Shown here in pieces: positions 6,001-33,000 of a stretch of DNA of 39,533 bases; the first letter of the stretch is position 1; each line of letters starts with the position of its first letter. Source of the stretch: a virus (lineage: Duplodnaviria > Heunggongvirae > Uroviricota > Caudoviricetes); the IMG/VR virus record IMGVR_UViG_2547132281_000008, positions 1 to 39,533 of that record. One strand, 5' to 3'. Position numbers: made by a program.

Positions 6001-9000
6001 GAATCCGCATGCAGTAACGAAGTACCAACCGTTGATGATTTTCCACTGCATAACTTGTTACCTCGGTCTGTTACCGTTGAGGTAATGATTATGCGTATCT
6101 GGTTTGGTGTCAATAGATATGAGTTAAAAAAATTACCCGTTAGGTAATCAAACAGGCAATAAAAAAGCCGCCATAAGGCGGCTTACTTACTGAAAAACAT
6201 GGTTTTATTGTTTGTTTTTTTCGTTCTGGCTGATGACAAATTCAATGTAACTTTCGATCTTTGCCTTCTCTGTTTCAGGTAACAATGCGTAGCGCGAGCG
6301 GTCATAGTTGATGGTCGCAGGGTCGTGCGGGTGAATCAGTAATTCATAGCCGTGACGCCCGAATGCGGATGCAACATTCTCCAGGGTGGAAATGGAAACG
6401 CTGACCTCATTGTTTAACAGGCGGCTGATTGTCACCTGGGAGACGCCGGATGCGCGGTGAAGTTTTCCCTGTGTTGAAAGGTCGCGGCTTTCGCTCATCC
6501 AGCGTTCCAGGTTGTGAGCCGCCAGCTGACCTATATCGCTCGGGCCGACAGGCTGAAAACCTTCCTGAGAAAGCGAGCGATCGATATCAAGCCAGTTACG
6601 GGGTTTATTGGCGGCAGCTTCAATTTTTCGCGCAACCTGGTCGCCGATAACCTTCTTGCCAAGAGCCCAGCGGTTTACCAGATTTGCCTGAGTTCCAAGT
6701 TTTTCTGCCATCCGCGTCTGAACACCATTGAATTCACGGTCGATCAAGTCGTTGAGATTTTGCCTGCGGACGTCCTGGATACTTTTCATTTTCTGGAAAA
6801 TCGCCTCATATATGAATCAGTAGATGATTCAATTTAAAGCAATATTACCCAACAGGTAAATGCACCCCATAGGTAACTATCCTTGATTTTTGTTACCTTA
6901 TGGGTGAATATTTATTATCTGAAATAAATATCAGGCAATAGCTATGAGCGATAACGGACATTTCGATTTCAAAAAGCACTGGCTTGCACTTACTCCGGAT
7001 GAGCGTGAAGCCTTCGCACAGGAAGCCGGAACGACGAGTCACTATATCCAGACTCACTTAACAGGTAAGCGCAAAATGCCAGGTAAGGTATTGATGAATG
7101 GGCTTTTTAAAGCCTGTAAAACAAGACAATGGCTGCGCTCAAAAGCAGAACTGGCATACTTCTTCTACTCATGATATCCAGCCACAACCCTCTGTAGACC
7201 GCCATCCGGCGGTCTTTTCATATCTATTCGTACCTCAAAGGTAATAAAAAACCAAATGTGGTTGATCTTTTTTTTGTGTCAGCACAAAATAACCGTAATC
7301 CCAATACTAATAACAGGGCTTACCATGGAAATCATTACACGTATTGATGCCGCAAAGCGCGGACTTAAACGCTATTACACCGGAAAACAATGTAAGCACG
7401 GACATGACAGTGAACGCTGGGTTTACAACGGACACTGTGTTGAGTGCACCATGGAATCAAACCGTCGCATCAGGGCAGAGATTAAGCAGATCATGATTAA
7501 TTCCTCCCCACAACACTCAAGCTGATAGCGGAGATTAATCATGAGCAGACATGCAACAGATTGGGCTTGGGAGACAGATCCAGGCAGCTCATCATTAAAG
7601 CTCATACTGCTCTCGATGGCTGACAGAGCCGATGAATATAACCTCTGCTACCCCAGCATAGAACGCCTCGTTAAAGACACTTGCCTGAATAAAAAAACCG
7701 TGCAGGCCGGGCTTATATCGCTCATGAAAATGGGGCTTATTTCAGATACCGGAGAGAGAAAGGGAGCGACAAAAAGAGTGCGGGTTTTCTCTCTTAATAT
7801 AACCAAAAACGGGAACATTAAAGGCAACCGAGAGGGGGGCAATGAACCCGAAAACGGTAATGTTACCGAAAACGGGAATATACCCAAAAACGGGATGTTG
7901 AATGATCCCAAAAACGGGATGTTGAATGATCCCAAAAACGGGATCCAGAACCAGTCATATAACCAGTCATTTAACCAAGAGAGGGAGAGCAGGACAAAAA
8001 ACGGGGATTCTGTGCATCATGACCCCGGCGCAAACAACGCCGTGATGAATAACTTTGTTCCTCTTGGTGGGCCAGGGCAATTAGGCAAATTTGTCATGCA
8101 TGAACAATGGCAGCCATCAGATGACTTTCTTCGGAAAAGCTCATTGCAGGGGATCTACCTGGACAGTCTGCCAACGGCACAGGAACTTGCAGAGTTCAGA
8201 ATTTACTGGATGGCTGAGGGTAAGGCATACCATCAGGCACAGTGGGAGCAGAAGCTGGCAAGGCGGCTGCAGATTAGCAGACAGAAGCAATCAACATTAC
8301 CTGATAACAACGTTCCGCACTGGAACAGCCCTGAAGCATGGGAGGATTTCTTGTGAACAACGTTTTTACCGCGATACAAAACCGTGACGGAGAAGCCCTT
8401 TCTCGCATGTCAGGTTATGAGCATCAGTACACCAACAATGACAACGTGGTGAACATGTCAGCAGAGAGGCTTGTTGATGCCCTTTTCAAACAGCTGAAAC
8501 AACTGTTTCCGGCGGCAGTGGTAACCAACCTGAAGACGCCAGAGCAGGAAGTTGCTGCAAAACAGCAGTGGATTGCTGCGTTTGCCGAAGGGGGGATCCG
8601 AACCCGTGAACAGGTTTCTGCTGGTATGCGCCACGCCCGCGCCAGTGAGTCTCCGTTCTGGCCGTCGCCAGGGCAATTCATCAAGTGGTGTAAAGACAGC
8701 AAGATGGTTCTTGGCGTCACCATTGACGATGTGATGGCGGAGTTTCACCGGTACAGCAAGGAAAAAAGTTTATATCCTGGTGGTCCCGAAAGATTCCCGT
8801 GGCGGCATCCGGTTATGTACTGGGTCGTATGTGATACCCGCCGTGCAATGTATCAGCGCCAGCTTAGCGAGATTGAGGTTGAGAAACACGCGCGCAGGCT
8901 GCTCGATGATTGGGCGAAAAAGGTGGCTTCCGGACAGCAGATACCCGATCCGGTGATCAGCATACAGGCAAAGTCAGAGCCCATGAGTACACCTCCGGAC

Positions 9001-30000: not shown

Positions 30001-33000
30001 CTATCAAGGGGCTGATGGGAAACTTGGTGCTCTTAACCGTACTATTGCTTTTAATGCAGACGGTAAATCGAATTTCCTCTCTGTTGAGTCCAGAACAAAA
30101 GCCACTCGTGATTATGCATTGAGTCAATTGCAAGAGGCATTTGAAGCAGTTGATCCTCGCTTTTTTGGCCTGTTTGAAGATGAAGCTGGCGTGCGTGACC
30201 TGGTATATGAAATGCGAGGGCAAAATACTGGCAATGCTAAAGCAAGAAAAGGTGCTAAGGCGTGGAGAGAAGTGACAGATCTACTGCGCCGCCGGTTTAA
30301 TGATGCTGGTGGGGACATTGGCTATCTCGAAAACTGGGGGATCCCTCAACATCATTCTATGGAAAAGGTTGGGGCGGTATCAAAGGATAAGTGGGTTAGC
30401 GATGTTATAGGTAAGCTGGATCGCAAATATTATATCCGAGCCGATGGACAACTGATGAACGATGCCGAGTTGTCTGCATTTCTTGGAGAGGCTTATAACA
30501 CGATCGCTACTGGTGGGCTGAATAAGCTTACTGATACCGGAATGCGAATTTCCGGCGCACGTGCTAACCGTGGTAATGCATCACGACAGATACATTTCAA
30601 AGATGCAGATTCCTATCTGCAATATCAGCAACTTTATGGCGATCGTTCTCTATGGGAAATCATGGTCGCTCACCTGGAAGGTATCAGTAAAGATATTGCA
30701 CTGGTGGAAACATATGGCCCAAACCCCGATCATGTTTTCCGCTCTCTTCTTGATCAGGTGAAGGCAGAAACGGCAACAGCTAACCCGAGTAAAACCGGTA
30801 AAGTCGAGCGGCTGGCGAACAACACAGAGAATCTGTACAACTTTATTTCCGGAAAGACACAGCCTGTAGCGAATCCGCACATCGCGCGATGGTCTGACAA
30901 TATCCGCAACTGGCTGGTTGCCAGCAGACTCGGATCCGCGTTGCTGTCATCGTTCTCTGATCTTGGAACCATGTATCTGTCTGCGAAGGTTACCAACCTT
31001 CCAATGAACCAGTTATTCCGCAACCAGCTTGAAGCTATGGACCCAACGAACCGTACAGAACTTGCGCGGGCGCGCCGCGCTGGTCTGGCGATGGAATCTC
31101 TACTTGGCAGCGTTAACCGCTGGGCGATGGATAATATGGGGCCGTCTGTGTCTCGTTGGGCGGCAACGGCGGTAATGCGTGCCAGTGGGCTTACAGCATG
31201 GTCAGATGCGCACAAGCGCGCCTATGGCGTAACTATGATGGGAAGCCTGGGAGAAGTAGTGTCACGGACACCAGACCTTCGTAGCCTCGATGACTCTGAT
31301 TTTCGTATCCTTAAAAGCAAAGGGATTACTGACACAGACTGGAGCGTATGGAAGCTGGCGCAACAGGAGGACTGGGGGAACGGTAATAATACGATGCTGA
31401 CACCGGAAAGCATTATGCGTATCCCTGATTCAGCAGTTAAACATCTTGGTGAGCCTGAACGCGTGAAATTTGAGGCAATGCGTAAACTGCTCGGTGCCGT
31501 AACTGAAGAAGTTGATATGGCTGTTATTACACCGGGAGCACGTGAGCAACTGATAACCGGTTCTGGTATTCAGCGTGGAACATGGAAGGGGGAATTAACG
31601 AGAAGTGTTTTCCTGTTTAAATCGTTCCCTATCTCGGTTGTTATGCGTCACTGGTCACGCGCTATGGGTATGCCGTCTGCTGGTGGGCGTGCGGCATATA
31701 TTGCGACGTTTATTGCCAGTACGACCATTCTTGGCGCTTTGTCGCAGCAACTTAACGACCTTGCGTCTGGTCGTAATCCTCGAGAGATGACAGGAGAAGA
31801 TGCCGCAAAATTCTGGCTTGGTGCTCTACTGAAAGGTGGTGGTCTTGGCCTTTACGGTGACTTTTTATTGTCAGATCACACTAGGTACGGAAGCGGCGCG
31901 CTGGCGTCGATGCTTGGCCCGGTAGCTGGTCTGGTTGATGACGTAGTGAAGATTGCTCAGGGCATACCGTTAAATGCTGTGGAAGGGAAGAGTGATCAGA
32001 CTGGTGGTGATCTGGTGAAGCTGGGGAAAGGTTTGATGCCAGGTGCGAATCTCTGGTACTTGAAGGCGGCTCTCGATCATATGATCTTTAACCAGATGCA
32101 GGAGTATTTTTCACCAGGCTATTTGCGTAAAATGGAGCAACGTTCGAAGAAAGAGTTTAATCAGACATACTGGTGGCGACCGCAGGATGTCACTCCGCAA
32201 TAAGGATGAGAAATGATTGCTTTTATTCTTGTTGTGTTTGCGCTTATTGCACTTGGCGTTATGAACCGTAAATGTATCATTGGTGATGGTGAATTTGCTG
32301 TTGCAGTTGTTTTGATATTATCTGGTGTAGCAGGGTACATAGGTTTGTCATAACGTGAGCGTGACATGTCACAGGCCGCTTTCGCGGCCTTTAAATTTAC
32401 CGGGTTTGTTTTCGTAATTGTTCGGCACAATAGTCGAGATGTGTTTGCAGATCCCGCATAGACATCTGTGAGCTGGTGACGTAGTTAATCAGTGCAGTCA
32501 GTTCGGCAAGTGGGACATCGACATTAAATCCATCCTTATCGAGATCCCGGAGTAATTTCATCAAGTGCGATCCCTCCACCAGTGACCTGACGCCTCCCGG
32601 CGTGTGAATCCTTTCGGTAAATCCGTCTTCCAGTGGATAGTGATACTGCTGCATCTTATCTTCTCCATGCAATAACTGTATATTTATACAGTAGCAAATA
32701 ATTTGTTTGCTATCCAGCACGTTTTGCGAATCACCTGAAAGGTAATATCTGTTCGTATTTATGGGTTATCTATCCATATGTGGTTTTTCAGGTAATAGAA
32801 TAACCGGATATGCGGCGCAACGGGTGCTGCGACTATCTGGAGATTTAACATGACGGTCTCAACCGAAGTTGACCACAACGAATACACAGGTAACGGCGTT
32901 ACGACATCATTTCCTTATACCTTTAGGGTTTTCAATAAATCTGATCTGGTAGTGCAGGTGATTGACCCTGACGAGAATATCACTGTGCTGGCTCTTGATA

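Follow-up and report, generated by a model that had tools for sequence, protein, structure and literature searches.

A Uetakevirus prophage of Escherichia coli with lambdoid-style early genes and a tail and ejection apparatus anciently related to that of phage T7

Identity and location of the prophage

The DNA analysed here is a stretch of 39,533 nucleotides (nt), positions 1 to 39,533 of the IMG/VR virus record IMGVR_UViG_2547132281_000008, and is referred to below as the window. Its genes lie in the order integrase, recombination, repressor/Cro, replication, terminase, portal and head, adaptor and nozzle, internal proteins, tailspike, O-antigen modification and lysis, with a co-oriented block of late genes and a divergent early region. 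This map matches that of Uetakevirus records, and the annotated records of phages phiV10, PAS61 and epsilon15 show a gene order identical to that of the window. The window is almost certainly an integrated prophage of the genus Uetakevirus, i.e., of the epsilon15/phiV10 temperate podoviruses, at the guaA 3′-end site of Escherichia coli. A preliminary description, made from the sequence alone, had proposed for positions 6205–32203 a hybrid of lambda-like early and replication genes with a T7-like virion module in a temperate phage, and had likened the whole to epsilon15. The genes it listed exist, and its limits coincide with gene boundaries, 6205 being the 3′ end of the minus-strand repressor gene and 32203 the stop of an open reading frame (ORF) of 824 amino acids (aa). 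However, RecE/RecT, the integrase, the tailspike, the seroconversion gene and Rz/Rz1 lie outside of that span.

A megablast search of phage genomes with positions 6205–30000 shows the closest similarity to Uetakevirus DNA. PAS61 and phiv142-3 are each matched with 87% coverage at 97.9% identity, ZX5 with 81% coverage (the window DNA is ~98% identical to that of ZX5) and phiV10 with 68% coverage at 97.8% identity, followed by Enterobacter phage Tyrion (82%) and Salmonella phage epsilon15 (75%). In a local blastn map, 32.3 kb of the 39.5-kb window align to phiV10, mostly at 95–98% identity, and 18 kb align to epsilon15 at 72–82%, whereas not a single base (0 bases) aligns to T7. The genus name is taken from the classification given in the records of PAS61, phiV10 and epsilon15. 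Thus the proposed likeness to epsilon15 proves correct, since the DNA is ~98% identical to that of phages that carry the same classification, and genome identity, gene order and attachment site core all fully support a temperate podovirus like epsilon15 and phiV10. Nothing was found that contradicts the assignment, and alignment to Uetakevirus genomes, where it could have failed, succeeded.

Most of the genome is shared at ~97–98% DNA identity with the Uetakevirus phages phiV10, PAS61, phiv142-3, ZX5 and TL-2011b, including the block from portal to ejection proteins. Compared with phiV10 and PAS61 there are only mosaic differences: the segment 33524–36367, which holds the distal tailspike and the O-antigen modification gene, is unrelated, and non-essential early genes at 10093–11764 differ from those of phiV10-type relatives. 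With epsilon15, the type member, the window shares the genus and the overall map. The stretches with 72–82% DNA identity are the integrase, terminase, portal, adaptor, nozzle, internal virion proteins A and B (IVP-A/B) and the lysis cassette, whereas the three large internal proteins and the recombination and replication genes have been replaced or are too diverged for alignment. The seroconversion genes of epsilon15 (O-antigen polymerase and inhibitors) are replaced by an acyltransferase-3 gene in the window. From the gene content and the epsilon15 literature, a podovirus virion would be expected, one that carries six tailspikes and contains an internal core.

The site of integration can be read from the two ends of the window. 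Position 1 is exactly the start codon of a tyrosine integrase gene (1..1251, plus strand, 416 aa) that has the Pfam domains Arm-DNA-bind_3, Phage_int_M and Phage_integrase and displays 98% DNA identity to phiV10 p31. At the other end, the 17-bp attR core ATTGAGTGGGAATGATT is found as an exact match at 38354..38370 on the plus strand, its single occurrence in the window. For phiV10, epsilon15 and ZX5 this sequence has been published as the attP core, and insertion of ZX5 takes place at the 3′ end of guaA (PMC9782041). Similarity to phiV10 terminates in blastn at position 38370, where the host genes yfgI and yfgH begin. These two minus-strand genes (38463..39533) encode lipoproteins with the Pfam domains DUF5384 and glycine zipper and are annotated as yfgI/yfgH in E. 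coli genomes. The last 1.16 kb of the window are thus host chromosome, and the provirus has been cut at gene boundaries. The junction between the lysis cassette and yfgI, as displayed by the window, is present in 496 of 5426 complete E. coli genomes.

The last two ORFs were also considered as phage morons, as both are contained in the phage record TL-2011b; this was rejected, with the yfgI/yfgH stretch being matched in 5421 of the 5426 E. coli chromosomes. The finding has little significance beyond correct annotation, for which a suitable label would be a guaA-integrated Uetakevirus prophage plus flanking host DNA.

Virion genes in comparison with T7 and other podoviruses

The virion genes described in this section lie on the plus strand. 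Those related to T7 genes encode the portal, the adaptor, the nozzle and the gp14-like protein, to which a counterpart of the C-terminal part of gp16 can probably be added; the terminase, protease, capsid, cement and decoration genes are not T7-related. This gene-by-gene division of the virion genes is the useful residue of the comparison with T7. When 19 virion proteins of the window were compared pairwise with 16 T7 proteins by BLASTP and phmmer, no significant match was obtained, and weak signals came only from the gp14 C-terminus and the portal. It is at the level of profiles and structure that the portal, adaptor, nozzle and gp14-like protein are linked to T7.

The portal (16145..17824, 559 aa) belongs to the Pfam family of T7 gp8, PF12236, with a score of 624 bits; T7 gp8 itself scores 379 bits. 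It matches the portal of phage Carin1 (8ck0_A, E 5.7e-179), and residues 381–555 in its C-terminal half match the portal of the T7-like cyanophage P-SCSP1u (E 1.9e-5), so that the T7-like portal C-terminus noted in the preliminary description is borne out. In PAS61 the portal is annotated with 735 aa (15937–18144) as against 559 aa in the window. Overlapping alignments (window positions 15287–16900 and 16363–33487) point to an internal duplication of ~540 bp in the portal gene of PAS61, possibly an artefact of the assembly of that record.

The tail adaptor gene (21025..21630, 201 aa) encodes a protein with the fold of tail tubular protein A, or T7 gp11. No match was found to the Pfam model of the T7 adaptor, Tube PF17212. 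An adaptor profile, which is narrow (30 sequences, Neff 2.1), gave nothing with T7 gp11 in hhalign, and its alignment profile reached only Carin1 and LME-1 in the PDB; because of this failure structure prediction was needed. The AF2 model (pLDDT 86.8), searched with Foldseek, matches the Carin1 connector with a TM-score of 0.82 (E 2.9e-26), as well as the LME-1 adaptor and the KP32 tail tubular protein A. It also matches several solved chains of T7 gp11, with E values of 1e-6 to 1e-5 and a probability of 1.00; with chain 7box_M the values are E 7.8e-7, TM 0.58–0.60 and 14% sequence identity.

The tail nozzle gene (21630..24101, 823 aa) follows directly, and its product is a homologue of tail tubular protein B, or T7 gp12. 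The nozzles of Carin1 (8ck1_A, E 1.8e-216) and LME-1 (E 1.9e-15) are matched, as are, with a nine-sequence profile, the tail tubular protein B of cyanophage A4 and the E1004 nozzle in the PDB. In hhalign the same profile aligns to T7 gp12 with a probability of 82% and E 1.1e-5 over 385 collinear columns (321–814 of the window protein with 350–781 of gp12). The Pfam model PF25675 is not matched, and membership in the gp12 type is therefore a distant one. At 201 and 823 aa, the two proteins at 21025–24101 are close in size to T7 gp11 and gp12 (196 and 794 aa), as had been pointed out for a tail tubular A/B-sized pair.

Downstream of the nozzle, at the position of T7 gp13, lies a gene for an internal virion protein of 154 aa (24101..24565; phrog_308, internal virion protein). 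A protein in this position after the nozzle is also found in Carin1, HTVC024P, Nsp-JY18 and Ab9, and homology of this protein type to T7 gp13 has been put forward in the literature (PMC4819975). The next gene encodes a gp14-like ejection protein of 179 aa (24565..25104; phrog_418), which matches the Pfam family PF24072 (T7_gp14) with 31.9 bits, above the cutoff of 27; T7 gp14 scores 160 bits. The protein starts with MCNPA and ends with GTPTGR, and T7 gp14 starts with MCWAA and ends with GTKTGR, so that a GTxTGR motif is common to both, with 10 of 13 residues identical at the extreme C-terminus. The gp14-like protein, proposed earlier from its MC and TGR termini, is thus confirmed by its Pfam match and by termini shared with T7 gp14. 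From adaptor to gp14, the sizes are 201, 823, 154 and 179 aa in the window and 196, 794, 138 and 196 aa in T7.

These results bear on whether the resemblance to T7 could be coincidental or convergent, limited to sizes and gene order, with a virion module that is unrelated to that of T7. The lack of significant pairwise BLAST and phmmer matches would be in accord with this, as would the failure of PF17212 and PF25675 to match the window proteins, the blank result of the narrow adaptor profile with gp11 and the 824-aa protein model, described below, which has no structural match. However, chance does not readily account for a portal that scores 624 bits in the T7 gp8 family, a gp14-like protein above the curated T7_gp14 cutoff with a C-terminal GTxTGR in common, an adaptor model similar to several T7 gp11 chains and a nozzle profile that is collinear with gp12, and published comparisons of hidden Markov models (HMMs) with each other also back homology (PMC4819975). 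Convergence is considered highly improbable.

Three genes for large internal or ejection proteins follow the gp14-like gene. The first (25117..27924, 935 aa) matches PHROGs for a head protein/injection transglycosylase and has a muralytic domain at residues 347–496, which matches the N-terminus of E1004 Gp29 (E 4.3e-38) and the endolysin 7q47 (E 4.8e-17). E1004 Gp29, a gp16-type protein, is a four-copy core protein. The muralytic (SLT) domain is in the middle of the first large protein here, whereas in T7 it is N-terminal in the last large protein, gp16, and in E1004 it is N-terminal in Gp29; it has moved between ejection proteins in different lineages. The second gene (27921..29723, 600 aa; phrog_1145, unknown function) is assigned by position only. 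Its epsilon15 homologue, gp16, has been proposed as internal virion protein C (IVP-C) by synteny (PMC4819975). Homologue searches gave only matches of at least 99% identity for the 600-aa protein and of at least 88% for the 824-aa protein. Three such ORFs, of 935, 600 and 824 aa, had been described as a trio of large internal proteins in T7 order. The three ORFs are present, but T7 has two large proteins after gp14, gp15 and gp16.

The third gene (29729..32203, 824 aa) encodes a probable counterpart of T7 gp16 residues ~400–1300. A 121-sequence profile aligns to T7 gp16 in hhalign weakly but specifically, with a score of 34.1 and E 0.005, over residues 5–775 and 404–1297, respectively. In comparison, 20 shuffles of gp16 score 17.9 on average (sd 2.6, maximum 22.3), reversed gp16 scores 16.6, and T7 gp15, gp12, gp8 and gp17 score 14–17.5, with nothing found for gp15. 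Two local alignments with gp16, from nested alignments of 36 and 121 sequences, are in the same register with an offset of ~+485. Both this result and those for the tail agree with Hardies et al. 2016 (PMC4819975). A search of the PDB with the 36-sequence profile gave nothing. The predicted model is all-helical (pLDDT 92, pTM 0.92) and has no counterpart among solved structures, the ejection proteins of T7, PhiM1, E1004 and P22 included. The family comprises 5124 clusters at 50% identity. Some of its members are fused into proteins of 1700–2900 aa, in which the homologues of the 824-aa protein form the C-terminal part. In Carin1 the slot of the later large internal proteins is filled by gp32 (2854 aa; 2902–11466 of the Carin1 piece compared).

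It is conceivable, if unlikely, that in the epsilon15/BPP-1/Carin1 lineage the three large internal proteins form a trans-envelope channel unlike the T7 gp15/gp16 tunnel, as an independent solution in the same slot and not as diverged homologues. No experimental structure is yet available for the large ejection proteins of this prophage family, which is a very common one.

The head and packaging genes show a different affinity. The small terminase subunit (12628..13302) is of the Terminase_2 type (PF03592, 103 bits), unlike T7 gp18, which belongs to PF11123 (DNA_Packaging_2). The large subunit (13299..14774; phrog_2) is not of the T7 type and has no Pfam match, whereas T7 gp19 matches PF22530; a search of PDB sequences gave nothing. 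A P22/Sf6-type terminase may be proposed on the basis of an HHpred note in the epsilon15 record, which relates the large subunit to Sf6 gp2, and of Hardies et al. Downstream of the portal are a Bbp19-like small head protein gene (17821..18117, PF25181) and a prohead protease gene (18114..18815; phrog_458 protease, E 3.5e-110), for which a protease is annotated in both phiV10 and epsilon15. The major capsid protein (18824..19816) is of the epsilon15 gp7/BPP-1 type (PF20911, 497 bits). In the PDB it matches the capsid proteins of Bordetella phage BPP-1 (3j4u, 432 bits), Carin1 (8cjz, 297 bits) and epsilon15 (3j40, 290 bits), and its family is other than that of T7 gp10, PF21703 (Gp10A-like). A Bbp16-type cement protein (19868..20305; PF21190, 162 bits) and an epsilon15 gp10-like capsid decoration protein (20696..21025; PF21628, 169 bits) complete the head genes. 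Over a capsid block at 18780–21015, which comprises the protease end, the major capsid protein, the cement protein, a small ORF and the decoration protein, there is no DNA similarity to epsilon15, though the flanking genes are similar; this points to a putative exchange of head genes within the genus.

The T7-type head and packaging set, i.e., a Gp10A-like capsid, a gp9 scaffold without protease and a gp18/gp19 terminase, is thus not that of the window. The earlier proposal of a T7-like virion module is upheld for the portal, adaptor, nozzle, gp13-position protein, gp14-like protein, large ejection proteins and fibre/spike block, and it fails for the head and packaging half, where capsid, protease and terminase belong to a non-T7 lineage. 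With T7 the window shares the Pfam families of portal and gp14, the adaptor fold, an alignable nozzle, a muralytic domain on an internal protein and an embedded Rz/Rz1, and also the order of adaptor, nozzle, small protein, gp14-like protein, large internal proteins and fibre. It differs by its three large internal proteins, by a protease in place of the scaffold gp9, by its capsid family, by terminase genes that lie upstream and are of other families, and by being temperate, with integrase and repressor.

A genuine recent chimera, in which a lambdoid prophage has gained its structural module through recombination with a T7-like phage (Autographiviridae), would explain the parallel order and sizes from adaptor to fibre and the T7 Pfam families of portal and gp14-like protein. 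It can be regarded as refuted for practical purposes. Neither DNA nor pairwise protein comparison links the window significantly to T7, and the capsid, protease, cement, decoration and terminase genes are of non-T7 families. A tblastn search with the nozzle matched 221 phage records (Vibrio, Pelagibacter, Pseudomonas, Xanthomonas, Liberibacter, Burkholderia, Bordetella and others), with no Autographiviridae among the matches and organism tallies listed. Moreover, the same complete module is found in Carin1, BPP-1/BIP-1, BcepC6B and in Pelagibacter and Xanthomonas phages, and so represents an old lineage of its own. The module is therefore not T7-derived: with zero DNA alignment, no significant pairwise match and no Autographiviridae among the listed nozzle matches, the T7 likeness is an ancient homology that is seen only by family profiles or structure.

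The closest solved portal-adaptor-nozzle complexes are those of Cobetia phage Carin1 (8ck0, 8ck1, 8cjz) and Legionella phage LME-1 (9efk). In Carin1 the whole virion module, from terminase to depolymerase, is syntenic in identical order, with the exception that the distal ejection proteins are fused into one protein of 2854 aa. Protein identity to Carin1 and LME-1 is ~32–45% where measured (nozzle ~44%, adaptor 32%), and the hosts differ. The LME-1 tail has been described as closely resembling that of T7.

A related question is whether the module is better called P22-like, or is equally distant from P22 and T7 as a branch of a broad podovirus "transient tail" group. Hardies et al. united the groups of epsilon15, P22, N4, phiRIO-1, F116 and T7 at a deep level of homology, and mapped the terminase and capsid of epsilon15 with proteins of the siphovirus/P22 type (PMC4819975). 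Swanson et al. 2022 found epsilon15 clustering with P22 in gp14 and gp16 trees (PMC8954989). To this can be added the tie of the epsilon15 large terminase to Sf6 gp2 and a temperate lifestyle, tailspikes and serotype conversion as in P22. On the other side, the portal shares its Pfam family with T7 gp8, and structurally the adaptor is matched best by adaptors of the T7 type, with P22 gp4 not in the list. Among the homology-group HMMs of Hardies et al., a strong nozzle match was found only between epsilon15 and T7 (PMC4819975), and the epsilon15 core stack is T7-like, with gp14/15/16-like genes in matching synteny (PMC8954989). A P22-like or equidistant placement thus has some basis but is judged doubtful.

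The preferred interpretation, i.e., a portal, tail and ejection apparatus anciently related to that of T7, is in agreement with what has been reported for epsilon15. Hardies et al. identified epsilon15 homologues of both T7 tubular tail proteins (A and B) and of three internal virion proteins, namely A, B and D (gp17), and IVP-C (gp15/gp16) could be assigned only by synteny (PMC4819975). An HHpred note in the epsilon15 RefSeq record likewise ties gp11 to T7 tail tubular protein A. The structural intuition of the preliminary description agrees with these published studies of deep homology among the tails and ejection proteins of podoviruses. A hybrid look is normal for the lineage, whose architecture had been published before, and is not that of a recent lambda x T7 recombinant: lambdoid-style regulation and replication are combined with a BPP-1/epsilon15-type head and with a portal, tail and ejection apparatus anciently related to that of T7. 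The architecture was already known from Hardies 2016, Swanson 2022 and the annotations of epsilon15 and phiV10.

Some details of this interpretation are soft. The window covers the right junction of the prophage, with attL and guaA lying beyond its left end, which is thus only presumed to be intact. No similarity of the 154-aa protein to T7 gp13 was detected in these tests, and a homology of the 935-aa and 600-aa proteins to T7 gp15 would be hypothetical.

By analogy with relatives and the literature, a P22/Sf6-style terminase would fill a BPP-1/epsilon15-type HK97 capsid, which the protease would mature and the cement and decoration proteins reinforce. The T7-family portal would bear a dodecameric gp11-type adaptor and a hexameric gp12-type nozzle, where O-antigen-specific tailspikes would attach. 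The gp14-like protein and the three large internal proteins, of which the 935-aa protein is muralytic, may be stored in the head and ejected as a trans-envelope channel.

Early genes and operators in comparison with lambda

The repressor gene (6205..6789, minus strand) encodes a protein of 194 aa with two helix-turn-helix (HTH) regions (PF01381 and others; phrog_8). Over these 194 aa Pfam shows HTH families only, with no S24 peptidase (autocleavage) domain. The repressor stretch is ~98% identical in DNA to that of phiV10. The experimentally tested repressor of ZX5, ORF21, has the same sequence in phiV10 and phiv142-3, and these relatives of the window rely on an antirepressor (PMC9782041). The phiV10 segment 19523–20543, with the Bro-N antirepressor p23 and p22, is absent from the window, with the junction at 32391–32397, and a p24-like ORF (32397..32720) with a weak antirepressor-family PHROG match is retained. 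Divergent from the repressor gene is that of a Cro-like small regulator of 76 aa (6944..7174, plus strand; phrog_35 transcriptional repressor, E 5.6e-13), after which a terminator was detected at 7196–7215 in a terminator scan.

A 15-bp palindrome, TTACC-N5-GGTAA, is found in 8 exact copies in the window as compared with ~0.04 expected from an arithmetic estimate, and with up to two mismatches it occurs 34 times, as against 11 ± 3.3 in shuffled sequences. The exact copies start at positions 6071, 6133, 6845, 9176, 9238, 12674, 15819 and 36326, and those with one mismatch at 6893, 7230, 12692, 32731 and 33715. Two exact palindromes at 6071..6147, ahead of the leftward early operon, form candidate OL-like operators, and three copies at 6845..6907, between the repressor and Cro-like genes, form candidate OR-like operators that overlap a promoter-like site. 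Further copies are present before the gene at 7256, in the gap that separates the P gene from the following operon, at the start of the small terminase subunit, and before the portal operon, the tailspike and the lysis cassette. In the epsilon15 RefSeq record, "repressor" binding sites are annotated at equivalent operon starts. Candidate operators at nearly every operon start suggest that late genes may be under direct repressor control. By this scheme, the two-HTH repressor would occupy operators in the repressor/Cro region and at most other operons and thereby keep the prophage silent, as expected from the relatives.

The replication initiator (7541..8356, plus strand), a functional O analogue, has HTH_36 and a DnaT DNA-binding domain and matches phrog_1032 (replication initiation protein). 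It is not of the lambda O family, as Pfam shows HTH_36 and DnaT only, and the "O-like" PHROGs match just the N-terminal HTH part. Directly downstream is a helicase loader gene of the lambda P family (8338..9138, plus strand; PF06992, 191 bits). Thus, of the O/P replication genes named in the preliminary description, P stands and O does not. Upon induction, the DnaT-domain initiator and the lambda-P-type loader would recruit host DnaB. Neither a phage RNA polymerase nor a T7-type replisome was found; no ORF of RNA polymerase size is left unassigned, and the early ORFs scanned include an integrase, the repressor, RecT, the DnaT-type initiator and lambda P. Pfam families of N or Q antiterminators were absent among the ten rightward early ORFs scanned, with 11789–12070 and 12398–12631 lying outside of the scan. 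The ORF preceding the terminase is phrog_536, "transcriptional regulator".

The leftward early operon includes a RecT-family single-strand annealing protein gene (2796..3764, minus strand; PF03837, 150 bits) and, as a separate overlapping ORF, a RecE-like PD-(D/E)XK exonuclease gene (3734..4555, minus strand; DUF3799, PF12684, 79 bits). Over DNA that is 98% identical, a single RecE-RecT fusion, p37 (29722–31482), is annotated in phiV10, and two coding sequences, both labelled RecT, are annotated in PAS61. With DNA that similar, a fusion as opposed to two ORFs indicates that the records differ by a frameshift or that one of them has a problem of annotation or sequencing. The same operon has an ORF of 344 aa (4859..5893, minus strand; phrog_1376, unknown function) with no Pfam or PADLOC match. 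Of the phage records, phiv142-3 alone contains it (98.6%), with phiV10, PAS61 and epsilon15 lacking it, and it may be an accessory or moron gene. In the PADLOC scan neither this ORF nor the acyltransferase gene nor the two terminal ORFs matched a defence system; the sole match was an MT-A70 methyltransferase, as "MTase_II".

With the lambdoid phages lambda, P22 and 933W the window shares the P-family loader, a divergent repressor/Cro region with three OR and two OL candidate operators, a leftward recombination and excision operon that ends at the integrase, a holin-endolysin-Rz/Rz1 cassette, and accessory genes of the Ead/Ea22, Eae, DUF1064 and DUF551 types. It differs in its HTH_36+DnaT initiator, in a repressor without S24, in that an N/Q-type antiterminator was not detected among the early ORFs scanned, and in that copies of the operator are found ahead of the replication-distal, packaging, portal, tailspike and lysis operons as well. 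The term "lambda-like" used for the early genes is therefore fair for the layout and for some families (P, RecT and the divergent switch), but not for the initiator, the repressor type or late-gene control, with operators before late operons.

Tailspike, candidate O-antigen modification and lysis genes

The tailspike gene (32850..35147, plus strand; PHROG tail fibre/spike families) encodes a protein with a conserved N-terminal anchor and a divergent receptor-binding part. The N-terminal ~385 aa are 58% identical to phiV10 p25, with a peak over the first ~230, and beyond them there is no similarity. It is followed by the gene of an acyltransferase-3 membrane protein (35206..36309, plus strand; PF01757, 103 bits), a candidate O-antigen modification (seroconversion) gene. 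The integrase, tailspike and seroconversion genes that had been taken as marks of a temperate phage of this type are thus present, the last as a candidate, the acyltransferase-3 gene. Similarity of the acyltransferase to the experimentally characterised Oac of phiV10 is not significant, and phiV10 oac is on the opposite strand, whereas the window gene is on the plus strand. The stretch 33524–36367 is without a DNA match in phiV10, PAS61 and epsilon15, and the tailspike/acyltransferase segment has the lowest GC content in the window, 30–40% (0.305 in 35001–36000).

The distal tailspike and the acyltransferase gene form a low-GC swap cassette, which probably sets and then masks O-antigen specificity; from the relatives, the acyltransferase-3 protein would probably modify the O-antigen of the lysogen. 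Such a cassette has a bearing on serotype-specific phage typing or therapy.

The lysis cassette (36437..38243, plus strand) consists, by Pfam, of two holin-family proteins, a GH19 endolysin, Rz and Rz1. The Rz1 gene (37960..38235), with the lipobox LAGC, is embedded in the Rz gene (37761..38243, plus strand). This is the arrangement that had been noted as lambdoid, and its presence is confirmed; yet the T7 counterpart, 18.5/18.7, is likewise embedded, so that an embedded Rz/Rz1 is common to lambda and T7 and does not discriminate between them.

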